Positions 1,062 to 12,209 are shown, counted from the stretch's first letter. The stretch is 64,000 nucleotides of DNA from an uncultured Verrucomicrobiae bacterium (GCA_963714695.1 CAVQPQ010000008.1:180656-244655); one strand, 5' to 3'. Made by a program: numbers and translations. Notes: generated by a model from the sequence alone, not told the origin.

Positions 1062-1140
1062 AGCGGACCATTCGGGCGGTTGCCGGCTTCGGCGGTCGCT
1101 CCGACGTAAAGGGGTCAGTCCAAATAATTTGCAATTTTAG

Positions 1141-1242
1141 TTTTTCCCATCGCCACCACGAACCGCCGCATCCTGCGCCAAACGCATTTCTGGCTCAACT
1201 GAAATTCCGCTCTCGAACCATCAATTCTCCGCCGGGTGCAGG
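1141..1242 (+). repeat. R1 intergenic repeat, copy A (full length)
   Basis: TTTTTCCCATCGCC..CATCCTGCGCCAAACGCATTTCTGGCTCAACTGAAATTCCGCTCTCGAA..AATTCTCCGCCGGGTGCAGG. Aligns over ~100 nt with copy E and over the core with copies B, C and D. Confidence 0.85.
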
Positions 1243-1304
1243 CCGCCACACCAGCTTGCGGACGAATGCGTGAGTGGCTATTGTCATCGCAGCACATATA
1301 TCCA

Positions 1305-2462
1305 ATGAAACAATCCATTTTTCACACCCTCTCGTTCATGGCCGTGTTGTCTGTTGCACTGACCACAACCGCGGCCCGTGGCCAGTCAAAGGCCGCCGCG
1401 CCTTCGGGCTTTGAACTGAAGCGGGGCGTCAATCTCAGCCACTGGCTTTCCCAAACCTCCGGCTGGCCGCCCAAGGACTCGTTCATCACCGAGAAGGATA
1501 TTGAGTTCATTGCCAGCGTCGGTTACGACCACGTGCGCATTCCCATTGATGAAGTCGAAATGTGGACCGCTGACGGGAAACCCTCCGGGGAATCATTCGC
1601 CTGTCTCACCCGCTGCCTCGATTGGTGCGCGAAGCACAATCTCCGGGCCATCGTGGATCTCCATGTTTTGAAAGCCCACCATTTCAACGCGGAGAACGAG
1701 GGGCTCAAAAACACGTTGTGGACGGACCCCGCCACGCAGGACAATTTCATCAGGCTGTGGATTGAACTTTCCGGCCGTCTGAAAAAATACCCGGTAAACA
1801 TGGTCGCCTACGAATTGATGAACGAACCCGTGGCCCCGGACCCGGAAGATTGGAACCGGCTGATCGCGAAAGGGGTGAAAGCGATCCGCCAGCTCGAACC
1901 CGGGCGGGTTCTCGTCATTGGATCGAACCGCTGGCAGACGCCCGAGAATTTTCCATTCCTGAAAATTCCCCCGAATGATCCCAATATCATTTTGAGCCTG
2001 CATACCTACGCCCCGCTGTTTTTTACGCACCATCTGGCCGGCTGGACGTCGTTCAAAGACTTCAAAGGCCCGGTGCATTATCCCGGCCGGGTCATTGCCG
2101 GGGCGGATTTTCCGAAATCCATGTACAACACGACCAACGCAGACCTTAAATTCCAGTTGGATGAAGCCAGGCAGGTGTTCAACAAACAGAAGCTCGCCAA
2201 GCAACTGAAGCCGGCGATTCGGAAGGCCAGGGAACTCAAGCTGCCGCTTTACTGCGGCGAGTTCGGCTGTCTGCCTCACGTCGAGCGGGCTGACCGGCTG
2301 AGGTATTACGACAACCTCGTCTCGGTGTTTGAAGAGAACCACATCGGGTGGTGCAATTGGGAGTACAAGGGCGACTTTGGAATTTTCACCTTCGATTTCG
2401 ACAAGCAGGTTTCGCTGGCTCCCGACACCGAACTAATCAACGTGCTGATGCGGAAACGATAG
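1305..2462 (+). CDS. glycoside hydrolase family 5 (endoglucanase/cellulase-like), secreted
   Basis: ORF 1236..2462. The likely start is the ATG giving MKQSIFHTLSFMAVLSVALTTTAARG (signal peptide). GH5 signatures YELMNEP (acid/base Glu) and CGEFG (nucleophile Glu). Confidence 0.85.
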   Translation: MKQSIFHTLSFMAVLSVALTTTAARGQSKAAAPSGFELKRGVNLSHWLSQTSGWPPKDSFITEKDIEFIASVGYDHVRIPIDEVEMWTADGKPSGESFACLTRCLDWCAKHNLRAIVDLHVLKAHHFNAENEGLKNTLWTDPATQDNFIRLWIELSGRLKKYPVNMVAYELMNEPVAPDPEDWNRLIAKGVKAIRQLEPGRVLVIGSNRWQTPENFPFLKIPPNDPNIILSLHTYAPLFFTHHLAGWTSFKDFKGPVHYPGRVIAGADFPKSMYNTTNADLKFQLDEARQVFNKQKLAKQLKPAIRKARELKLPLYCGEFGCLPHVERADRLRYYDNLVSVFEENHIGWCNWEYKGDFGIFTFDFDKQVSLAPDTELINVLMRKR

Positions 2463-2528
2463 CGCGCCCAACACAAATATGGCTCAACTGACATTCAGCT
2501 CTCGAATGTGAATTTTCCGCCGGGTGTC
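2463..2528 (+). repeat. R1 intergenic repeat, copy B (right two-thirds only)
   Basis: GCGCCCAACACAAATATGGCTCAACTGACATTCAGCTCTCGAATGTGAATTTTCCGCCGGGTG. Starts directly after the GH5 stop codon. Confidence 0.8.
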
Positions 2529-2546
2529 ATATCCGCCCGCCCCCAA

Positions 2547-2963
2547 TCAAGGAGTTATCAGTTCAACCGCCGGAAAATATTTTTTGAAGCGTTGCTGGTC
2601 GCGGGTGGCAATCTTCCAGCCCATGATTTCCGCCTGCGCGCCGATGAAGAAATCCGGCAGCGGCATTTTGGGCGGCGCACTGCCGCCGGAGTCCCGCCGC
2701 GCAGTGACATAGCGGCGATAAGCCCTGCCGCAAACCGCAGCCGCGGCCGCCGGCACGTCATGCACGGTGATGCCCCAGCGTTTGATCTCCGGCTCAACCT
2801 CATCCGGATTGCGCGCCCCGGCGCACAATTCCGCCAGCGTTACCACGCTGACCCCGCCGCCTTCCCCCGCCACAGTGTCCTCAATCTGTTTCTTCGCCCA
2901 CCGGTGATTGACCTGGTCCTTGTCCAAGGCATCCACAATCACATTGGTGTCCAAAAGAATCAT
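2547..2963 (-). CDS. vapC: PIN-domain ribonuclease toxin (VapC family)
   Basis: MILLDTNVIVDALD N-terminus typical of PIN toxins. 138 aa. ATGA overlap with the upstream antitoxin ORF. Confidence 0.85.
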   Translation of the reverse strand: MILLDTNVIVDALDKDQVNHRWAKKQIEDTVAGEGGGVSVVTLAELCAGARNPDEVEPEIKRWGITVHDVPAAAAAVCGRAYRRYVTARRDSGGSAPPKMPLPDFFIGAQAEIMGWKIATRDQQRFKKYFPAVELITP

Positions 2964-3190
2964 GGCTCGCGCGTCAACTCGCGCAATTCGTCCCAGGTCA
3001 GGTCAAATTTCATCCGGCTTGCCTTGATTGCGGCCATAACCTGCGCCCGGTTTTTTTTCTTCGGCGGAGCGGGCTTGTTCAGGCGCACCAGCAGGAAGTG
3101 CCCATTGCCTTCATTTTCACAGGCAAACACGTCACCGGGCCGGGCGCCCGGCATGACCACCCGTCTTTTGCTGTCAGCGGTTACTGTCAT
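2960..3190 (-). CDS. vapB: AbrB/SpoVT(MazE)-type antitoxin (VapB-like)
   Basis: ORF 2960..3208. MTVTADSKRRVVMPGARPGDVF resembles looped-hinge-helix antitoxins. Start moved to the ATG at 3190 because a TTGCAT-N17-GATTAT promoter would place the upstream ATG inside the spacer. Confidence 0.75.
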   Translation of the reverse strand: MTVTADSKRRVVMPGARPGDVFACENEGNGHFLLVRLNKPAPPKKKNRAQVMAAIKASRMKFDLTWDELRELTREP

Positions 3191-3196
3191 GGTGGG

Positions 3197-3225
3197 ATAA
3201 TCCCACATTTTGGGCCGGGATGCAA
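3197..3225 (-). promoter_or_regulatory. putative sigma70-type promoter of VapBC cassette 1 (near-leaderless)
   Basis: On the minus strand: TTGCAT (3220-3225), 17-nt spacer, GATTAT (3197-3202), then 6 nt to the ATG at 3190. Confidence 0.45.
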
Positions 3226-3370
3226 GCGCATTTTCGATTCATTTCTCCGCCGGTGCCGGGACGGAAGGCGATATTGGATGCCACCAGATGATGGCATTCC
3301 GTTTTGCGTTTGGTTCTACCAAATGTAAAGTACGGTGGCATCAGCAAAAAGGATCCGCTGTGATTTGGCG

Positions 3371-3450
3371 TTTTTGGTTCTTCCCCGCCACGAACAGCCG
3401 CATCCTGCGCCCAACGCATTTATGGCTCAACTGAAATTCAGCTCTCGAAA
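3371..3450 (+). repeat. R1 intergenic repeat, copy C
   Basis: ..CCCCGCCACGAACAGCCGCATCCTGCGCCCAACGCATTTATGGCTCAACTGAAATTCAGCTCTCGAAAA. Confidence 0.85.
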
Positions 3451-3465
3451 ACCCGATTGGCCGCG

Positions 3466-3572
3466 ATAGAACGCAAAGAACACATAGAAAGCAGGATTCA
3501 TCGGTTGGTTGTCTGCCAACGGCTTTTGCCGGTCCGGTTCTTCTCTTTACGATCTCTGCGTTCTTTTGCGGC
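3466..3572. repeat. decamer-repeat hairpin element (solo)
   Basis: Left arm ATAGAACGCAAAGAACACATAGAAAGCAG. Right arm GTTCTTCTCTTTACGATCTCTGCGTTCTTTTGCGGC is its imperfect reverse complement. A small central stem GTTGG-N7-CCAAC is also present. Confidence 0.6.
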
Positions 3573-3647
3573 TAACGAGAAATTTCCCGCCGGTTCAAGC
3601 CGCTTCCGGCACCAGGTCAATCCGCCATGCCGGCGCGGCAGGCAATT

Positions 3648-4031
3648 TCACAGCAGACGAACATTCATCACGTTCCGAACGCGTTGAAAGTCCTTGTCCT
3701 GCGTGGCGATGGCCAGTTTGTTTTCCCGCGCCACCGAGAATTGATAGGCATCATCGAAGTCGAGGCCGTGCCGGGTGTTTACCCCGGCAAGCTGGAGATA
3801 ACCGGCGGCGCTCAGGGAAAGAATGGTGAACTGCGGCAGCGTGTCCGCCGCGAACCGATCGAATAATTTCACCCGCTTCTGGCGAAACAGCAGCACGCCG
3901 ATGGAATGGAGCGTGAAGTCGGAAATCCATGCCGCGCCCTTCTCGCCCTGTAAAAACGTTTCGCACTTTTTGCGCCCGGCCTGGCTGAGCAGGATTTCCA
4001 GGAAGATGTTGGTGTCCACCAGATAGTTCAT
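3648..4031 (-). CDS. vapC: PIN-domain toxin (VapC family)
   Basis: MNYLVDTNIFLEILL N-terminus. 127 aa. ATGA overlap with the upstream small ORF. Confidence 0.8.
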   Translation of the reverse strand: MNYLVDTNIFLEILLSQAGRKKCETFLQGEKGAAWISDFTLHSIGVLLFRQKRVKLFDRFAADTLPQFTILSLSAAGYLQLAGVNTRHGLDFDDAYQFSVARENKLAIATQDKDFQRVRNVMNVRLL

Positions 4032-4246
4032 CGCAGTTCGTTGAGATGGTGCTGCAACTCAACGGCGGTGAACCGGCGTTTCAAATCCGCCAAACCGCCC
4101 GCCCAATCGAATTTGAAGCGGCGCTTCGCGGAGCGCGCGGGCTTCGTCGGGGTCGTCTTCGACAAAAACTCGATGAATATCTCCACCTGCTTTTGCGCCA
4201 CGACGGGCAAAGTTTCATATTTGGCGATCAAGGTGTCTTTGCTCAT
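4028..4246 (-). CDS. putative antitoxin partner of the PIN toxin
   Basis: ORF 4028..4291. The likely start gives MSKDTLIAKYETLPVVAQKQVEIFIEFL. GGAG lies 5 nt upstream of that ATG. Small acidic/basic protein coupled to the PIN gene. Confidence 0.6.
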   Translation of the reverse strand: MSKDTLIAKYETLPVVAQKQVEIFIEFLSKTTPTKPARSAKRRFKFDWAGGLADLKRRFTAVELQHHLNELR

Positions 4247-4312
4247 GCGTCTCCAAGTTACCTGCGAAGAGCCATTGGCGCAATCCGGCAATCGCCACGG
4301 CTCAATTTTCAG

Positions 4313-4400
4313 TTTTTTCCATCGCCGCCACGAACAGCCGCATCCTGCGCCGAATGCATTTATGGCTCAACTGAAATTCAGCTCTCGAATGTGAATTGCG
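4313..4400 (+). repeat. R1 intergenic repeat, copy D
   Basis: TTTTTTCCATCGCCGCCACGAACAGCCGCATCCTGCGCCGAATGCATTTATGGCTCAACTGAAATTCAGCTCTCGAATGTGAATTGCG. Confidence 0.85.
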
Positions 4401-4483
4401 CGCCGCTCACCAGCACCCAGCTTCCGCCCGGGGAATCCAGTCATCACACTAAGTAAACCCTTTTCAACCCAAATATGTCCTTG

Positions 4484-4560
4484 AACAGGAGCAAACAGAG
4501 GTAACGGAGAGCAGGCTCGGTCCGCAATCCTTTCCCCTCTGTTTCCTCCGCGTCCTCCTG
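4484..4560. repeat. decamer-repeat hairpin element (solo)
   Basis: Left arm AACAGGAGCAAACAGAGGTAACGGAGAGCAGG and right arm CCTTTCCCCTCTGTTTCCTCCGCGTCCTCCTG. Units of type nAACnGAGGn face their complements. Confidence 0.55.
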
Positions 4561-4608
4561 TAAGATGCCTTCGGAATTCTGGTTGAACGACAACCGGGAG
4601 CAACGCCT

Positions 4609-7314
4609 GTGCGTGAGGAAATGCCGTCGAAGCTGTCTATAAATAAAATGTCTTCAACCATTTCCGGGCGGAACATCGCGGCGCGGGCGGCAACGGACAA
4701 CGCCGCCGTGCTCGTGCTTCGCCTGGCAGAAGCCGGCGACAACCACCGGTCGCTGGTGGGCGGCAAGGCATTCAATTTGGGCAAACTGATCGCGGCGGGC
4801 CTGCCGGTGCCGCGCGGCTTTTGTGTCACCACGACGGCGTTTGATCTCTTCCTGGCTTCGTGTCCGAGGCGGACTGAATTATCCCATCTGCTGGCGCAAT
4901 GTTCCGGCGCTGAGATTGGGCGGATCGCGGAATTGAGCCGGGAAATCCGCTCCTGCCTGGCAGAGGTTCAGGTGCCGGAGGCGGTGAAGGATGCGGTGCT
5001 GTCCGCGTGGCGGGAACCGGGTGGAGAGCGAAGCTTTGCCGTGCGTTCCAGCGCGACCGTCGAGGACGCCGCCGGGATGTCTTTTGCCGGTCAGTTTGAA
5101 TCCATTCTGAATGTGCGCGGGGCGGACGCGTTACTGGACGCCATCAAGACGTGCTGGCTGTCGCTTTTCTCCGACCGGGCGCTGGTTTACCTGGCGAAAC
5201 AGCGGATGCCGACGGAGCGGGTCAGGATGGCGGTGGTGGTGCAGGAAATGGTGGACGCCAGCCACGCCGGGGTGGTGTTCACCGCCGATCCGCTGACGGG
5301 AGCAACGGACCGGTTTGTCGTGGAATACGTGAGCGGCCTGGGCGAAGGGCTGGTGCAGGGGACGGTTCAGCCCAAGCGGGCAGTGGTTGAAAAACAAACC
5401 GGACGCGTGCTGGCTTCGCCTGAAAACGAACTGCTTTCGTCCGCAACTCTCGAAAACCTGTGCGATCTCGCCCGCCAGACCGAGCATCTTTTTGGTTCGC
5501 CGCAGGATATCGAGTGGGCGCAGCGGGATGGCGAACTGTTCCTGTTGCAGTCCCGCCCGATCACAACCAAAGCAACCAAAGCTCCAGCCAGGACGTGGGA
5601 GGACCGGCAGGTCTGGACCAATGTCAACACCGGCGAAGTGATGCCGGACGTGATGACGTCGATTACGTGGTCCATAATGCAATCCTTGTTTGGTGTGGTC
5701 GGTTCCATCTTTCGCCTGGTGGGCGCTGATATTACGCGCGCTCCGCTAGCGGGGCTCGTTGCCGGCAGACTCTATTTCAATGCCAACACGAGTTTGGCTG
5801 CGGTCAGACCATTTTCCTTCCTGCACAAGGGACTCCCAGATTTTGCCCGGGCGGCGGGAGGCGATCTGGTGGATGCCTACCGCCAGGCCCCGCTGACCCT
5901 TTCGCCGGAAGATCTCCCGAACCTGGGTTTCCGCTGGCCGAAATACTTCCTCTCATTGCCCCGCATCCTCTACGATGTCATCACCCATTCGTCCCGCCGC
6001 CGTGGTTATGCCAACTTGGCCCATTTTAAGAAGCAAACGGATGAACTCGACCGTCTGGACCTCGGGGCCATTTCCACACCGGAACTGACCCGGCTGTGCG
6101 TCCAATACATTCGGGAAGTTTTCAAAGACGCGGATGTGCTTTACTTGGCGACGCAGGGAGCGGTGCTGCCGGTGTTTTTGAAGGTCTGCCGCGATTGGCT
6201 GGGCGAACCCGGCTTGGCGCTCCGATTGTTCGCCGCGTTGGGCGGCATGCCGGTCGCGGAAGCCGGCCTGGCTCTCTGGCGACTGGCGGCGCTGGCTCAC
6301 GCCGACGGTGACACGGAGGCCGCGGTGTCTTCTGAAAACAGTTGGCCGGAGGTCCGCGCCAGGCTTTGCCGCACCGAACATGGCCGGAGATTCCTGGCCG
6401 CCTGGGATGCCTTCATGACCGAGCACGGACACCATTGCCGCGGCGAATTCGAGCTGTCCAACGCGCGCTGGTGCGAGACCCCTGATTACATCCTGGGGCT
6501 GGTGCGTGGCTATCTTCGCTCGCTGGGCCAGTCCGATCCGTTGGAAAACCAACGGCGGCTGGCGGAAGAGCGGGAACGCTTGACCGTCCAATGCCGCGCG
6601 CGGCTGAAGCATCCAATCAAACGCTGGATCTTCTCGCACTCGCTGCGCCGCGCGCAGGAACTGACCGTCTATCGCGAAAAGTTGAAGAGCCAGCTTGTCC
6701 GGCAGTTCGCCTTCACGCGCCGCGTTCTCCTGGTCCTCGGCCAGCGGCTCCACGAGCAGGGCAGTTTGTCCTGCCGCGACGACATTTTCTTCCTGGAAAT
6801 TTCCGAGCTGGAACTGGTCGCGACGGGCGGCGCTTCGTTCGATTGGCGCGGGCGCATCGAATCGCGCCGGCGGGAATACGAAAAAAACCTGAAGCTCAAC
6901 CCGCCGCGGGTCGTGAACGGAAGATTCGATCCCAATGTGCCCGACTGGCCGGTGGCAAACACGGACGCGAAACTTTTGGAAGGCATTCCGGTTTCTCCCG
7001 GCATCGCCACCGGGCCCGCCCGCGTGATTTTGCGCGCGGATGAACATGAGCAGGTTCTGCCCGGCGAAATTCTCATCGCTCCGTTCACCGATCCGGCATG
7101 GTCGCCGTATTTCATCACCGCCGCCGGCGTGGTCATGGAACAAGGCGGGATTCTTTCGCACGGCAGCATCGTCGCGCGCGAATACGGTCTGCCGGCGGTG
7201 ACCAACGTGGCCTTGGCCACGCGGGTCATTCGCACGGGCGACCTGGTGCAGGTGGATGGAAACCGCGGCCGCGTGAGCGTCCTCAAGCGTCTGGCCGAAG
7301 ACCACACTGCTTAG
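4609..7314 (+). CDS. PEP-utilizing enzyme, PEP synthase / rifampin-phosphotransferase-like architecture
   Basis: N-terminal ATP-grasp PPDK_N-type motif LVGGKAFNLGKL. C-terminal phosphohistidine swivel domain FTDPAWSPYF...GGILSHGSIVAREYGLPAV. ~900 aa. The true start may be an internal ATG (4621 or 4648). Confidence 0.8.
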   Translation: MREEMPSKLSINKMSSTISGRNIAARAATDNAAVLVLRLAEAGDNHRSLVGGKAFNLGKLIAAGLPVPRGFCVTTTAFDLFLASCPRRTELSHLLAQCSGAEIGRIAELSREIRSCLAEVQVPEAVKDAVLSAWREPGGERSFAVRSSATVEDAAGMSFAGQFESILNVRGADALLDAIKTCWLSLFSDRALVYLAKQRMPTERVRMAVVVQEMVDASHAGVVFTADPLTGATDRFVVEYVSGLGEGLVQGTVQPKRAVVEKQTGRVLASPENELLSSATLENLCDLARQTEHLFGSPQDIEWAQRDGELFLLQSRPITTKATKAPARTWEDRQVWTNVNTGEVMPDVMTSITWSIMQSLFGVVGSIFRLVGADITRAPLAGLVAGRLYFNANTSLAAVRPFSFLHKGLPDFARAAGGDLVDAYRQAPLTLSPEDLPNLGFRWPKYFLSLPRILYDVITHSSRRRGYANLAHFKKQTDELDRLDLGAISTPELTRLCVQYIREVFKDADVLYLATQGAVLPVFLKVCRDWLGEPGLALRLFAALGGMPVAEAGLALWRLAALAHADGDTEAAVSSENSWPEVRARLCRTEHGRRFLAAWDAFMTEHGHHCRGEFELSNARWCETPDYILGLVRGYLRSLGQSDPLENQRRLAEERERLTVQCRARLKHPIKRWIFSHSLRRAQELTVYREKLKSQLVRQFAFTRRVLLVLGQRLHEQGSLSCRDDIFFLEISELELVATGGASFDWRGRIESRRREYEKNLKLNPPRVVNGRFDPNVPDWPVANTDAKLLEGIPVSPGIATGPARVILRADEHEQVLPGEILIAPFTDPAWSPYFITAAGVVMEQGGILSHGSIVAREYGLPAVTNVALATRVIRTGDLVQVDGNRGRVSVLKRLAEDHTA

Positions 7315-9872
7315 TCGGCTTGAATGTTCACGGCCTGCGACAAACGCAGATCACGGGAAGAGGCGCCGATGAACACATCGAACGTTCCCGGCGCGAGGGT
7401 CCATTGATTTTTCTTGGGATCGAAAAATTCAAAGGCGCGTTCGCCAAGCGGGATGGCGACGATTCTGGTTTCGCCGGGAGCGAGTTGAACTTTGGCGAAG
7501 CCTTTGAGTTCCCGCACCGGGCGCGGCACTGGGGAATGCCGCGGCCCGACGTAGAGCTGGGCGATTTCCGCGCCTGCGACCGGGCCGGTGTTCGTTACGT
7601 CGAATTCCACCTCGCACGCCGCCGGGCCGGTTTTCTTGATGCGCAGATTGTCATACTTGAACGTGGTGTAGGAAAGACCGTGGCCAAAGGGAAACAGCGG
7701 TTTGATTTTGTTCCGGTCGTAATAACGGTAGCCGACAAAGACGCCTTCGGAATATTTCACCTTGAGGCCGGGATCCTTGTAACCGGCGAATTCCGGCGCC
7801 TCGCTGCGCTTCTGAATATAGGAAAATGGCAGCTTGCCGGACGGATTAATTTCGCCGGTGAGAATCTGCGCCAGTGCCGTCCCGCCTTCCTGTCCGGGAT
7901 AAAGCGCGGCCACAACCGCTTTCGCCTTCGACAGCCAGGGTTTCATCAGCACCGGCACGCCGCCCCAGACAACGACGACGGTGTTGGAATTCACCTGGAG
8001 GACGGCCCGGACCAGTTCGTCCTGTCCTCCGGGCATCTTGAAATCCGCCACGTCGTTGCCTTCTCCTTCCGTATCCGAAGTGTTCCCCACGCAGAGCACC
8101 ACCGCATCCGCGCCCCGCGCTGTCGCCACGGCCTCGGCGATGGTGGGGTCGGGCGTGTGATCCCGGGGATCGCGCCAGCCGAGGCGCATGCCGGCGTCGC
8201 CGCCGCCTTGGTAATACTCGATGCGAAGGTCATAGGCTTTGCCGGCTTCGAGATTTAATGCGCCGGATTTCGGCGACATGCCGTGTTCCCCCCAGTTGTC
8301 CACGACCTTTTTGCCATTTAAATAAAGCCGCGAACCATCGTCGCTGGTGATGGAGAGAAAATATTTCTGTGTCCACGGCGGCACGAGTTTGCCCGTCCAG
8401 CGGATGGAATAATCAGTCGGCTTGAGTCGCGGATCGGGGCTGATGCTGTTCGTCCATTCAAAATCAATTTCGGGATCCACGCGCGTAAAGAGAGGTTTGC
8501 CCTTCAAGTCAGGATTGCCAAAATACTCGCCGAGCAAACCATGATTCGTGCCGTCGGGAGCCAGGAGAAATTCCGAAGCCAGCGTTATGGCTTTCACGGG
8601 ATCCACGTTCACGCCCCCGGCAAACTCAATTTTCACGCGATCGCCGAGGAGATTTTTCATCCCAGCCACCGGACTGACTTTTTCCCACGGCTGGATGGTC
8701 GAACTGCCGCCGCCGCCGGTGCTAGCGATATTGGCCGCCGGCCCGATGAACGCGACGGTTTTCAACTTGTTCCTGGACAGCGGGAGCAGGCCGTCGTTTT
8801 TCAGGAGTACGATGCTTTTTTGAGCCATCTCCAGCGCGAGATCGCGATGGGCAGCGCTGCAAACCACGCTCTCGTCAGGCTTCGGTGAAGGATTCTCAAA
8901 CAAGCCGGTCTCGAACCGCACACGGAGCAGGCGGCGGATTTTGTCGTCAATGGTCTGCTCCGTCACCTGGCCGGATTGGACAGCCTCAAGAAGCTTGTCA
9001 CCGAACCAGATGGGGTGCGGCATTTCAAGATCGAGGCCGTTGTTCGCCGCTGCCACGGCGCTGTGAACCGACACCCAGTCGGACATGACGATGCCTTGGA
9101 AGCCCCAGTCGCCCTTCAAAATGTCGGTGAGCAAATGCCTGTTTTCGCTGCAATGCTGGCCGTTGACGATGTTGTAGGCGGACATGACGGCATGGACTTT
9201 GCCTTCGGTCACGGCTGCCTCGAAAGCGGGCAGATGGATTTCGCGCAACGCCCGCCCGTCCACCACCGAATCGGCGCGGGTCCGCTCCCATTCCTGGTCG
9301 TTGCAGGCGAAATGCTTGACGGTGGCGATGACGTTCTGGCTCTGGACCCCCTGGATGTAGCTCACCGCCATGCGCCCGGAGAGAAACGGGTCTTCCCCGA
9401 AGCTCTCAAAGTTTCGTCCGTTGAGCGGAAAGCGATGAATGCCCACGCACGGACCGAGAATACAGTTTTTGCCCTTGGCCTTGACTTCCTCGGCGAGCGC
9501 AACGCCGTAACGTTGAATCAAATTGGTGTCCCACGAAGCCGCCATGTTGACAGAAGCGGGCCACGCGGTGGCCGCGCCGGTACGCACACCCACCGGCCCG
9601 TCGGTCATGCGGATGGGCGGGATGCCGAGGCGTTCAATGCCGCTGGCGTTAAAACCCGTTTCGTCGCCGCCGAGCATCGTGATCTTTTCCGCCAGCGTCA
9701 GCCGCGGCAGGAGATCGTCAATGCGGGTTTCAACCGGCAGCGAAGGATTCATATATTTTGCGCCGGAAAGATCTTCAGCGACAACCACCCGCAGCGTCAG
9801 GGCGGCATTGAACAGGACCCATCCGGTGACGATGCGCCGGAGCCGGAAATTGCGGGAGTGAATTTTGATCAT
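7311..9872 (-). CDS. glycoside hydrolase family 3 beta-glucosidase with PA14 insert, secreted
   Basis: KHFACNDQE and GIVMSDW (nucleophile Asp) GH3 motifs. PA14-like segment GLLGEYFGNPDLKGKPLF...YDLRIEYYQGGG. N-terminal signal-like segment. Its stop codon overlaps the stop of the convergent PEP-enzyme gene. Confidence 0.9.
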   Translation of the reverse strand: MIKIHSRNFRLRRIVTGWVLFNAALTLRVVVAEDLSGAKYMNPSLPVETRIDDLLPRLTLAEKITMLGGDETGFNASGIERLGIPPIRMTDGPVGVRTGAATAWPASVNMAASWDTNLIQRYGVALAEEVKAKGKNCILGPCVGIHRFPLNGRNFESFGEDPFLSGRMAVSYIQGVQSQNVIATVKHFACNDQEWERTRADSVVDGRALREIHLPAFEAAVTEGKVHAVMSAYNIVNGQHCSENRHLLTDILKGDWGFQGIVMSDWVSVHSAVAAANNGLDLEMPHPIWFGDKLLEAVQSGQVTEQTIDDKIRRLLRVRFETGLFENPSPKPDESVVCSAAHRDLALEMAQKSIVLLKNDGLLPLSRNKLKTVAFIGPAANIASTGGGGSSTIQPWEKVSPVAGMKNLLGDRVKIEFAGGVNVDPVKAITLASEFLLAPDGTNHGLLGEYFGNPDLKGKPLFTRVDPEIDFEWTNSISPDPRLKPTDYSIRWTGKLVPPWTQKYFLSITSDDGSRLYLNGKKVVDNWGEHGMSPKSGALNLEAGKAYDLRIEYYQGGGDAGMRLGWRDPRDHTPDPTIAEAVATARGADAVVLCVGNTSDTEGEGNDVADFKMPGGQDELVRAVLQVNSNTVVVVWGGVPVLMKPWLSKAKAVVAALYPGQEGGTALAQILTGEINPSGKLPFSYIQKRSEAPEFAGYKDPGLKVKYSEGVFVGYRYYDRNKIKPLFPFGHGLSYTTFKYDNLRIKKTGPAACEVEFDVTNTGPVAGAEIAQLYVGPRHSPVPRPVRELKGFAKVQLAPGETRIVAIPLGERAFEFFDPKKNQWTLAPGTFDVFIGASSRDLRLSQAVNIQAD

Positions 9873-9929
9873 CTGGTTTTAGTATTGATGGTTCGAATAG
9901 GCGTCGGTCCCAACAATATGGATTTTTGC

Positions 9930-10029
9930 TTTTCCCATCGCCATCGCTAACAACCCCATCCTGCGCCAACCGCATTCATGGCTCAACTGAAATTCAGCTC
10001 TCGAAAGTCAATTCTCCGCCGAGTGCAGG
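9930..10029 (+). repeat. R1 intergenic repeat, copy E (full length)
   Basis: CTTTTCCCATCGCCATCGCTAACAACCCCATCCTGCGCCAACCGCATTCATGGCTCAACTGAAATTCAGCTCTCGAAAGTCAATTCTCCGCCGAGTGCAGG. Confidence 0.85.
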
Positions 10030-10108
10030 TTGCCGGTGCCGGCGCGGAAGATGATGTTCGTCTGGTCCAGATTGCCGGGACCGGAGGCCGACGCTCCGTT
10101 GGAATTTA

Positions 10109-10780
10109 TTACACCAACGCACGGAACGTCCGCCGCACGCACGAATCTTTCAAAGCTTTCCCGGGGTCAAAATGTCCGCCCAGCCACGGCAAACAAAAAA
10201 TCCGCTTCGCGTCCAGAAATTCTGCCAGCAGGCTGGCATTTGTCGGAGTGGAAGCGTCCGTCTTTGACGGCGACATCAACACGACGCGCGCCCGGCACGA
10301 TGCGCTTCGCGGCAAGGCGGCGAGGTTCAGTAAAATCTGATTCAACGCGCCAAGCCGGTTGGGGCAGACAACCATCGGTGTTGCCCGCAAGGTCACGATG
10401 AGTTCGCGCGAGTTAAATTTCTCGCCCAGCGGACTGAGCAGACCACCCGCCCCCTCAACCAGTACCACGTCAAAACGCTCTTGCATCGCGCGGATGTGCG
10501 CGAGTACGCGGGCAAGTGCGACCGGCTTGCGTTCGCAGCGGGCGGCGAGCAACGGCGCGATCGGCGCGCGAAAATGCCACGGATTGACTTCGTCGAGCGT
10601 GAGTGAACCAGCTGCCGCGGCGTGAAGCGCACGGGCGTCGGCGCGGTCGCCGGAGCAAACCGGTTTGAGTGCCACGGCATTGATGCCGCGTTCCCGCAAG
10701 CAGCGCGTCAGCAGCGCCGTCAGCACGGTTTTGCCAACGCCGGTGTCCGTGCCGGTGATGAAGAAGGTCGTTCGTTTCAT
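10109..10780 (-). CDS. bioD: dethiobiotin synthase
   Basis: MKRTTFFITGTDTGVGKTVLTALL P-loop typical of BioD. Start trimmed from the ORF-track 10828 to the ATG preceding this motif. Confidence 0.85.
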   Translation of the reverse strand: MKRTTFFITGTDTGVGKTVLTALLTRCLRERGINAVALKPVCSGDRADARALHAAAAGSLTLDEVNPWHFRAPIAPLLAARCERKPVALARVLAHIRAMQERFDVVLVEGAGGLLSPLGEKFNSRELIVTLRATPMVVCPNRLGALNQILLNLAALPRSASCRARVVLMSPSKTDASTPTNASLLAEFLDAKRIFCLPWLGGHFDPGKALKDSCVRRTFRALV

Positions 10781-10886
10781 TCCGGCAACATCAAAGCGGA
10801 AACCCCGCAGACAAGCCATCAAAACCATTGACGGGCACAGCGCGGTTCATTTATGTTAAAGGGCTCGCTGACCAGCGGGAATTATT

Positions 10887-12209
10887 GTGAATATCACCGT
10901 CGAAACTCTGGCCCCGTGCAAAAAATTGCTGCGGGTGGAACTGGACGCGAAGGCCGTGGATGAAACCTTCGACGCCGTCACCAAGGATTTTCAGAAACAG
11001 GCTTCGCTGCCCGGCTTTCGTCCCGGCAAGGCGCCCCGCCCCCTGGTGCTCAAAAAATACGAGGTGGACATCAAGGACGAGGTCAAACGCAAGCTCATCG
11101 GCGATTCGTACCGCAAGGCGCTGGACGAGAAAAAGATTGCCGTCATTGGCTACCCGGACATCGAGGAAATCCAGTTTGGCCGCGGCCAGGCGCTGCAATT
11201 TGCCGCCACCATCGAGACCGCGCCGGAATTTCAATTGCCGGAATACAAAGGCCTGCCGGCCAAACGCGAGGCGAAATCGGTCACCGCGGCGGACGTGGAT
11301 CGCGCCATCGAATTGCTCGCCCGGCAGCACACAAAGTTTGAGACGGTTGCGCGCGAGTTGCGCCGGGGCGACGTGGCGGTGGTGAATTACACCGGCACGT
11401 GCGACGGCAAACCGATCACCGACACCGCGCCGACGGCGAAAGGCTTGACGGAGCAGAAAAATTTCTGGGTGGACGCCGCGCCGGACTCGTTTGTCCCCGG
11501 TTTTGCCGATCAGATCATCGGCGCGAAAGCGGGCGACCGGCGCACGGTGAACGTGGTGTTTCCCGCCGATTTCGTGACGAAACAGCTCGCCGGCAAGAAG
11601 GGCGTGTTTGAAGTCGAAGTCGTCGAGGTGAAGGAAAAGAGTTTGCCGCCGATTGACGACGCGTTCGCCAAAAAATATGACGCGGAAAACCTGGCGAAGC
11701 TCCGCGAGGGCGTGCAACGGGATCTGGAGAATGAATTGAAATATTCGCAGGCCAAGGTGGTTCGCGGCCAGATCATCCGTGCGCTCCTCACCGCCACGAA
11801 TTTTGATTTGCCGGAAACTGCCGTCGCGCACGAAACCCGCACCGTGGTTTACAACATCGTCCGCGAAAACACGCAGCGCGGCGTGGCGCGCGATTTGATT
11901 GAAAAGCAGAAGGACGAAATTTATTCCGCCGCGGCGCAGAGCGCAAAAGAGCGCGTGAAATTGTCATTCCTGATCCAGCGCATCGCCGAGAAAGAGGGCA
12001 TCCAGGTGTCGCAGGACGAGGTTTTGAAGCGTGTGCAGTCGCTGGCGGCGGCGTATCAGATTCCGCTGGAGAAATTTCTCAAGGACCTGCAGAAGCGCAA
12101 CGGCGTGGCGGAGCTTTACGAACAGATTGCCCATGAAAAAGTGCTCGCGTTCCTCGAACAAAACGCCAAAATCGAGGAAATTCCCGCGGTTGCCGCAAAA
12201 GCCGGTTGA
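10887..12209 (+). CDS. tig: trigger factor
   Basis: Ribosome-binding signature PGFRPGKAP near the N-terminus. Central FKBP-like region. 440 aa. GTG start. Confidence 0.93.
   Translation: MNITVETLAPCKKLLRVELDAKAVDETFDAVTKDFQKQASLPGFRPGKAPRPLVLKKYEVDIKDEVKRKLIGDSYRKALDEKKIAVIGYPDIEEIQFGRGQALQFAATIETAPEFQLPEYKGLPAKREAKSVTAADVDRAIELLARQHTKFETVARELRRGDVAVVNYTGTCDGKPITDTAPTAKGLTEQKNFWVDAAPDSFVPGFADQIIGAKAGDRRTVNVVFPADFVTKQLAGKKGVFEVEVVEVKEKSLPPIDDAFAKKYDAENLAKLREGVQRDLENELKYSQAKVVRGQIIRALLTATNFDLPETAVAHETRTVVYNIVRENTQRGVARDLIEKQKDEIYSAAAQSAKERVKLSFLIQRIAEKEGIQVSQDEVLKRVQSLAAAYQIPLEKFLKDLQKRNGVAELYEQIAHEKVLAFLEQNAKIEEIPAVAAKAG

Follow-up and report, generated by a model that had tools for sequence, protein, structure and literature searches.

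Why do unrelated gene units at a single bacterial locus stand between copies of one short repeat that all face the same way? The locus occupies the first 10 kb of a 64,000-nt stretch of DNA from an uncultured Verrucomicrobiae bacterium (hereafter the window; C8:180656-244655 of genome G000, a 5.16-Mb assembly of 9 contigs with 57% GC), and the repeat, which we call REP, is a non-coding sequence of ~130-190 nt. A preliminary description of the window had likened the arrangement to a sedentary integron or a cluster of attC sites lacking integron integrases (CALIN), while also naming a small-RNA gene family, a miniature inverted-repeat transposable element (MITE) and a recombination site. The comparisons presented here lead us to favour, with a probability of roughly one half, the view that REP may be a portable homology arm at the seams of a hypervariable zone, and that cassettes may move together with one REP by homologous recombination or by insertion with target duplication.

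REP copies in the window and in other genomes

A repeat search located five REP copies in the first 10 kb of the window, four full and one partial, all on the plus strand and at the places originally described. Their 26-nt core (GGCTCAACTGAAATTCAGCTCTCGAA) occurs five times at ≤1 mismatch, compared with no occurrence in 100 shuffled sequences. A sixth fragment (3225-3275) had been overlooked, as had two properties of the repeat: its right tail is the antisense end of a gene, and every full copy in the window lies immediately upstream of a minus-strand gene (the open reading frame (ORF) at 141-1061, vapBA, the DUF2281-PIN pair and GH3). When the whole of G000 was searched with a profile (nhmmer), only seven copies were recovered, namely the five clustered in the window and one each at C6:647169 and C5:497377.

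The two copies outside the window are part of a 310-bp unit (C6:647139-647448 and C5:497200-497509, 98.4% identical) made up of REP and another 165 nt; four other genomes have single sites that match these 165 nt at 92-94% identity. On C6, another GGGGTCAGTCC-type end comes directly after this unit. In addition, 1757 nt from the 5' part of an NHL-repeat gene are 100% identical at C1:42992-44748 and C6:645380-647136, and on C6 the identity stops exactly at the left end of REP, 13 nt upstream of the start codon of the NHL-repeat gene. The block would have arisen by a recent duplication or as an artefact of assembly. We considered C1 and C6 as an empty-site pair and rejected them, because the far side does not continue and the difference is not a simple insertion.

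Within the genus, REP was found in 15 of 163 species genomes, at one to at least five copies each, and it is restricted to a subclade. An exact-pattern scan detected it in nine named metagenome-assembled genomes (MAGs), all assigned to Limisphaerales, Verrucomicrobiae or Verrucomicrobiota and recovered from peat, bog or soil. Metagenomes yielded 78 copies on 54 peat or bog contigs. Copies are in direct orientation on 15 of the 17 multi-copy metagenome contigs, with a spacing of typically 0.7-1.7 kb, and the arrays of the MAGs are all same-oriented. Plasmid and phage collections gave no match to REP.

Gene units between REP copies differ between genomes

The window, PLAY01000106 and CAWDPX010000004 have a common backbone consisting of a GH94 region, a PPDK-like gene and a GH3 gene (83-90% nucleotide identity), and they differ from one another at the REP seams. 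The 5.5-kb unit of PPDK-like gene and GH3 is common to PLAY, CAWDPX and L059 at ~89-90% identity, and the GH5 gene of the window is syntenic with a REP-GH5 arrangement in PLAY01000106 (83% nucleotide identity). The order in PLAY is REP, GH5, partial REP and PPDK, with no toxin-antitoxin (TA) unit in the orthologous spacer; compared with PLAY, the window has vapBC with REP C and DUF2281-PIN with REP D between GH5 and PPDK. A single partial REP in PLAY therefore stands where the window holds REP B, C and D together with two TA units, and the rest of the spacer has been substituted. In CAWDPX, the genes found between REPs encode a tetratricopeptide-repeat (TPR) membrane protein and an acyltransferase.

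The same units recur elsewhere. The vapBC unit (2542-3449, comprising the cargo and the REP core) is 81% identical in G161 (L028), where it is next to GH94, and 91% identical on metagenome contig L051, where it lies behind a REP with a class-iii tail (see below). The DUF2281-PIN unit including REP D (3618-4428) is 96% identical on metagenome contig L093, and the block formed by REP C and its tail (3369-3625) is 91% identical to CAWDPX 9932-10187. The two G161 contigs L028 and L029 were considered as a case of within-population polymorphism and discarded, as they are collinear at 97.5%. In total, 35 inter-REP segments fell into 15 cargo clusters, with further cargo represented by GH30, an AAA_14/DUF4143 ATPase, an N6_Mtase/Eco57I-type methylase (L058) and a PA-IL-like lectin. 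On L071, a gene for a 133-aa protein is followed by an AAA ATPase gene, and on L085 this order is reversed, with the ATPase gene preceding the 133-aa gene.

The vapBC cassette is bracketed by two degenerate copies, each of ~25 nt, of the REP right end, which is single in the PLAY spacer. Because these bracketing duplicates are single in PLAY, REP B and the fragment at 3225-3275 look like one REP that was split by the insertion of vapBC. The cassette-like nature of the units, as put forward in the preliminary description, is supported by the common orientation of the copies, by their location at the boundaries of variable units and by the lack of the TA units in a relative; the comparison with integrons or CALINs that went with it is not supported.

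Composition of REP

By its sequence, REP is a mosaic that, read on the minus strand, consists of a stub from the 3' end of an ETF-QO/FixC-like gene, a conserved core of ~60 nt and an end of ~25 nt resembling a terminal inverted repeat (TIR). In G021 (CAWJHF010000006), REP continues at its plus-strand right end into the stop codon of an ETF-QO/FixC-like gene on the minus strand; the product of this gene has PF21162 and 4Fe-4S domains and a C-terminus ending in NIAFRAGTGGLHSAEN. As in G021, REP is found directly behind an intact ETF-QO gene in PMOA01000125. Antisense stubs of the ETF-QO C-terminus were detected by tblastn in copy E (23 codons), copy A (8 codons, GGLHPAEN and stop), at 3246-3275 (10 codons) and in the C5 and C6 copies (11 codons). 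G000 has an intact ETF-QO gene 184 kb from the array, without REP, and similarity ends exactly at its stop codon. Since REP adjoins the intact gene in both G021 and PMOA01000125, the place directly behind the ETF-QO gene is likely to be the ancestral location of REP, and the ancestral DNA downstream of the ETF-QO-like gene of G000 has apparently been replaced or moved. The DNA now following that gene (C8:376060-376500) is AT-rich and unrelated, and is not REP.

Three classes of right tail can be distinguished: class ii is the ETF-QO stub, class i (TGTGAATTGAGCGCCGCTCATCAGCACCC) is ~55% like class ii, and class iii leads into a decamer-repeat hairpin. Decamer-repeat hairpin elements, in which GAACGCAAAG-like units face CTTTGCGTTC, are found after both REP C (3450-3617) and REP D (4480-4560); the element at 3450-3617 moves together with the class-iii tail, is 91% identical in CAWDPX and also occurs on L051 and in JBKQOA. 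On the plus strand upstream of vapB, the interval from the ETF-QO stub to REP C contains a terminator-like hairpin (3276-3299; GGATGCCACC...GGCATTC, then a T run).

The left boundary of REP is sharp, with AAGGYGTCAGTCC (AAGGYGTCAG) set against at least 10 unrelated flanks. In copy A, 24 of the 25 leftmost positions agree with the TIR of a Y1_Tnp element (C3:478782-479808). This element is 1.03 kb long, with TIRs of 25-29 nt (TAAAGGGGTCAGTCCAAATAATTTAYAAT) and a 311-aa Y1_Tnp gene inside, and the same TIRs flank deletion derivatives of ~530 bp. Five such derivatives on C3 (308198, 313223, 327980, 339209 and 343686) are in direct orientation at distances of 4.5-15 kb and form another same-orientation array. 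The outer TIR end of this element family often adjoins a CAT that serves as the start codon of an opposite-strand gene. The TIR family was found in 3 of the 163 genus genomes, all three of them REP-positive, and 12 of the 15 REP-positive genomes are without it. The earlier suggestion of a MITE holds for the left end, which is a transposon terminal repeat, but not for the remainder: no second inverted end was found in the window, no target-site duplication was seen at 14 junctions, and in place of a high copy number the genome has seven copies, of which five are clustered.

Between genomes, the 60-nt core is 87-91% identical, compared with 71% for the TIR part and 76-87% for four-fold degenerate sites of neighbouring genes. 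The core exceeds four-fold degenerate sites in conservation, and the constraint acting on it suggests a function of its own. A similarity of 16-21 nt between REP and a GH94 gene end is possibly real and too short to build on. A coding repeat was considered and rejected: ATGGCTCAACTG opens short ORFs, but the ATG is absent from the G021, PMOA_3995 and PLAY_3934 copies, the C5 and C6 copies reach a stop after 3 codons, and the conservation has no codon pattern.

The features of the array are compiled in Table 1. Pfam searches confirmed all of the gene families originally assigned to the intervals between copies, that is GH5, VapBC, PIN-antitoxin and the phosphoenolpyruvate (PEP)-utilizing enzyme with GH3. 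The base composition of the cassettes carries no foreign signal (56-62% GC compared with 57% for the genome), and the region to the left of REP A gave no blastn match in the nine related MAG loci compared.

Table 1. Coordinates of REP copies and genes of the array and its flanks (positions in the window)
Feature	Position	Strand	Remarks
ORF, 306 aa	141-1061	-	No Pfam match; rich in Gly, Thr and aromatic residues
REP copy A	1108-1246	+	TIR-like left end 1108-1135, conserved core to 1217, then antisense ETF-QO stub; flanked by minus-strand ORF 141-1061 and GH5
GH5 cellulase-family gene, cassette 1	1305-2462	+	Pfam
REP copy B	2464-2526	+	Right part only; begins 1 nt past the GH5 stop codon
vapC (PIN) and vapB cassette	2547-3208	-	Pfam
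REP remnant	3225-3275	+	Core end and antisense ETF-QO stub (NIAFRPGTGG); right-hand member of the degenerate ~25-nt duplication around vapBC
REP copy C	3367-3465	+	Left-truncated; core end 3449; class-iii tail after it, to 3617
PIN toxin and DUF2281 antitoxin cassette	3648-4291	-	Pfam
REP copy D	4300-4428	+	Lacks exactly the TIR-like 25 nt; class-i tail TGTGAATTGCGCGCCGCTCACCAGCACCC
PPDK_N/PEP-utilizer enzyme	4609-7314	+	Pfam
GH3-PA14 beta-glucosidase-type gene	7311-9872	-	Pfam
REP copy E	9893-10079	+	Degenerate TIR end 20 nt from the GH3 start codon; core end 10005; on the right side a 23-codon antisense ETF-QO stub (PGNLDQTNIIFRAGTGNLHSAEN, then stop), ending 30 nt from the bioD stop
Right flank of array	10109-12209		Dethiobiotin-synthase-type gene (AAA_26, -) and trigger factor (+); core genes

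A homology-arm model for the arrays

If REP is a portable homology arm, the module would have begun as the spacer downstream of ETF-QO and would have been duplicated each time that a unit inserted beside it. Host homologous recombination between REP copies could then lead to the insertion, deletion and reordering of units composed of cargo and REP, which might be delivered by DNA uptake or as excised circles of cargo with one REP, and new cargo such as vapBC would be inserted in a way that duplicates the right end of REP. The direct orientation of the copies would follow, since growth by insertion with REP duplication gives it automatically. The substrate for crossing over would be provided by tracts of perfect identity in the core of copies C, D and E. 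These measure 34 nt between C and D, 29 nt between C and E and 28 nt between D and E, and tracts of 28-34 nt are enough for RecA-type exchange. As a weaker part of the model, the core may be kept because it also works as a minus-strand promoter or leader, in line with the promoter candidate and the close gene starts set out below. No recombinase gene accompanies any of the arrays examined (G000 and 8 relatives, 343 kb of REP loci). Of the labels offered in the preliminary description, recombination site remains the best, although recombination is most likely homologous rather than site-specific.

Several observations weigh against this model. For copies A and B, tracts of perfect identity with the other copies reach only 12-22 nt, which is below the usual minimum for RecA-dependent exchange. 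Compared with PLAY, the GH5-PPDK spacer has been substituted and not cleanly filled, and the duplication around vapBC is degenerate and, at ~25 nt, shorter than the 30 bp asked for by Furuta et al. (PMC2853133). The sharp left boundary (AAGGYGTCAG against at least 10 flanks), together with the absence of exactly that module from copy D, would be better explained by a precise cutting enzyme. No sigma-70 consensus site is present in REP, and the orientation of left neighbours is only mildly biased (39 minus compared with 25 plus). Finally, the evidence is a comparison of assemblies from which the recombination events are inferred, and the changed gene order between L071 and L085 is the weakest link because short-read metagenome contigs can misjoin at repeats.

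Alternative explanations

It is possible, though unlikely, that REP is primarily a reused ('mobile') promoter and 5'-leader with an operator palindrome, directed on the minus strand into the gene past the TIR-like end, and that the arrays are a by-product. Besides the minus-strand gene that directly follows every full copy in the window, 20 of the 39 left neighbours on the minus strand have their start 10-60 nt past the end of REP, with distances of 20 nt for GH3, 12 nt for GH30 and 13 nt for the NHL-repeat gene. The families found at 10-60 nt are unrelated (GH3, GH30, AAA/DUF4143, PIN TA, NHL repeat and lectin), and because their starts are so close to REP these genes would have no room for a promoter of their own. 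A candidate minus-strand promoter, TTGAGC-N17-CA(G/T)(G/T)AT, can be drawn in REP (TTGAGC-N17-CAGGAT being a weak candidate), with a CTGAA-T-TTCAG palindrome just upstream. The invariant alignment columns correspond to the proposed -35 hexamer and to positions 2, 5 and 6 of the proposed -10 hexamer at a fixed spacing of 17 nt, consistent with TTGAGC-N17-CAnnAT, and the 5-1-5 palindrome is centred near -41. Conservation of the core beyond that of four-fold degenerate sites also fits a regulatory role, and homologous promoters in front of unrelated genes have already been described as putative mobile promoters resulting from promoter reuse (Nijveen, Matus-Garcia and van Passel 2012; PMC3575422).

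Nevertheless, a consensus promoter scan detected no sigma-70 site in REP. Promoters of the sigma-54 and sigma-32 styles were sought by eye and rejected, as their spacing or hexamers misfit. Moreover, 25 of the 64 left neighbours lie on the opposite strand, the proposed -10 hexamer is absent from copy B and several partial copies, and a promoter would leave the ETF-QO stubs and the recurrence of whole units in other company unexplained.

We regard as improbable the proposal that REP serves as the site for a site-specific or single-strand recombinase encoded elsewhere in the genome and acting in trans, with a Y1 (IS200/RAYT-like) transposase that recognises the TIR-like end as one candidate, so that the cassettes are enzyme-driven. 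A precise enzyme would account for a sharp left boundary that is the same next to at least 10 different flanks, for the identity of the left 25 nt with a TIR flanking a Y1_Tnp gene, for the absence of exactly this module from copy D and for the end of the 1757-nt identical block of C1 and C6 exactly at the REP left end; the biased orientation of the cargo and the direct orientation of the copies point the same way. Against this stands the distribution of the TIR family, which is confined to 3 of 163 genus genomes and missing from 12 of the 15 genomes with REP. Searches with integrase and Y1-transposase seeds (tblastn) gave no hits in 343 kb of REP loci and the window, with neither a Y1 nor a tyrosine recombinase being detected in the REP loci. 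Of the 37 tyrosine-recombinase (PF00589) matches in G000, the nearest on the contig are at 10, 325 and 397 kb, compared with 181-191 kb for the array, so that an intI-type recombinase is not found near it, and in eight relatives no PF00589 match was detected on the array or within tens of kilobases. There is also only one TIR-like end per REP, with no subterminal hairpins and no fold. It is similarly doubtful that REP arrays represent a new enzyme-driven cassette system of Verrucomicrobiota, parallel to integrons, with another site and a recombinase (possibly Y1/HUH or a host Xer-type enzyme) encoded elsewhere; cassettes of TA, glycoside-hydrolase and restriction-modification genes would be captured, stacked and reordered by it and would receive a promoter.

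A folded form of REP, as RNA or single-stranded DNA, had been suggested by a small stem, TGCG-N5-CGCA. This stem is indeed present and is G-U compatible in copy D, but neither it nor the CTGAA/TTCAG stem shows a compensatory change in 17 copies from 10 genomes, and the 7 unpaired cells of TGCG-N5-CGCA across the 17 copies do not set it above shuffles. Folding of four copies as DNA, on both strands, was no better than that of shuffled sequences (z -0.63 to +1.63). RNAalifold on 19 copies returned a consensus of only -3.8 kcal/mol on the plus strand and -9.1 kcal/mol on the minus strand, with no long helix and no consensus hairpin. Rfam gave no match to REP at the gathering threshold or at E≤1, which together with the lack of a fold and of covariation lends no support to the small-RNA gene family proposed earlier, and REP has no terminator on either strand. 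The pair of attC cores RYYYAAC...GTTRRRY, 40-140 nt apart, was not found within 200 nt of the five copies on either strand, the only core being GCTCAAC. The preliminary description was correct in finding neither an integrase in the window nor an R''/R' pair, and its integron or CALIN resemblance is not upheld. REP does not pass the tests that define integrons, CALINs and structured RNAs, and as far as membership based on structure is concerned we reject these identities because there is no fold, no core pair, no nearby integrase and no Rfam match. An attC array without integrase or a small structured RNA gene is thus very improbable indeed, even though same-oriented copies separate small cassettes that include TA pairs, GCTCAAC fits RYYYAAC and two 4-bp stems can be drawn, since no hairpin rises above chance on either strand, no GTTRRRY partner lies within 40-140 nt, and sequence rather than structure is conserved.

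Comparison with known systems

Integrons are the textbook case of cassette stacking and shuffling, which in them depends on a dedicated integrase and on attC sites that fold. REP arrays resemble chromosomal integrons and CALINs (e.g. the Vibrio cholerae repeats (VCRs) of Vibrio) in having same-orientation repeats of ~100-130 nt, small cassettes and TA cassettes, in the similarity of the repeat sequence within a lineage and in a cassette content that varies between relatives. They differ in that REP is without the attC hairpin and R''/R' cores, IntI was not found in or near the arrays, several REP cassettes are multi-gene or of opposed orientation, and it is the sequence and not the structure of REP that is conserved. 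The arrays thus offer a layout comparable to that of integrons without integrase or folded attC sites, across ~15 species of uncultured peat Verrucomicrobia. With the repetitive extragenic palindromes associated with tyrosine transposases (REP/REPIN-RAYT) and other IS200/IS605-derived elements, REP has in common that its left 25 nt match the inverted repeats around a Y1-transposase gene of the same genome; in contrast to them, it is single-ended, has no palindromic doublet, is low in copy number and is mostly not co-distributed with the Y1 element. Should a trans-acting enzyme prove responsible, the arrays would constitute a new cassette system.

Like putative mobile promoters, REP is an intergenic sequence whose closely similar copies immediately precede non-homologous genes, both within one genome and among its relatives. 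What sets it apart is that it includes stubs of gene ends and the end of a transposon and delimits cassettes; its promoter activity is predicted. In the minimal mobile elements of Neisseria, cassettes are exchanged by transformation and homologous recombination in conserved flanks. The two systems are alike in that alternative whole-gene cassettes occupy one site, without mobility genes and by means of host recombination, but the arms of the Neisserial elements are flanking core genes, whereas in REP arrays each cassette is accompanied by a dedicated short repeat and can therefore be stacked and reordered.

The cargo of REP arrays comprises TA, methylase and ATPase genes in addition to polysaccharide-degrading enzymes. 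If REP is a homology arm, ordinary recombination can build plasticity zones that resemble integrons, and the arrays may then explain the varying glycan-degrading repertoire of these soil bacteria.

A further parallel is insertion with long target duplication, described for restriction-modification gene complexes (Nobusato et al. 2000, as cited in Furuta et al. 2010; PMC2853133), for which Furuta et al. require direct repeats of >30 bp at both flanks, matched by one copy where a relative has the empty site. As far as that secondary account goes, both systems have gene units without mobility genes between direct repeats tens to hundreds of base pairs long, repeats that match resident sequence, often the 3' end of a gene, a related genome holding the empty site (here a possible counterpart in PLAY, with one partial REP and a substituted spacer), and 'selfish' cargo, here TA pairs and the N6-methylase on L058. 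Neither a transposase nor an integrase was found in or beside the units of the window, which agrees with that kind of insertion. Compared with the cases covered by that account, REP is distinctive in being one conserved mosaic module, not a repeat newly formed from each target, that is reused up to five times in a row and in ~15 species, in having ordinary metabolic genes among its cargo, and in the degenerate, ~25-nt duplication at vapBC. If the homology-arm model is correct, insertion with long target duplication would extend from restriction-modification complexes to TA and metabolic cassettes. What would be new here is integrase-free insertion and exchange of cassettes with one reused module and a broader cargo.

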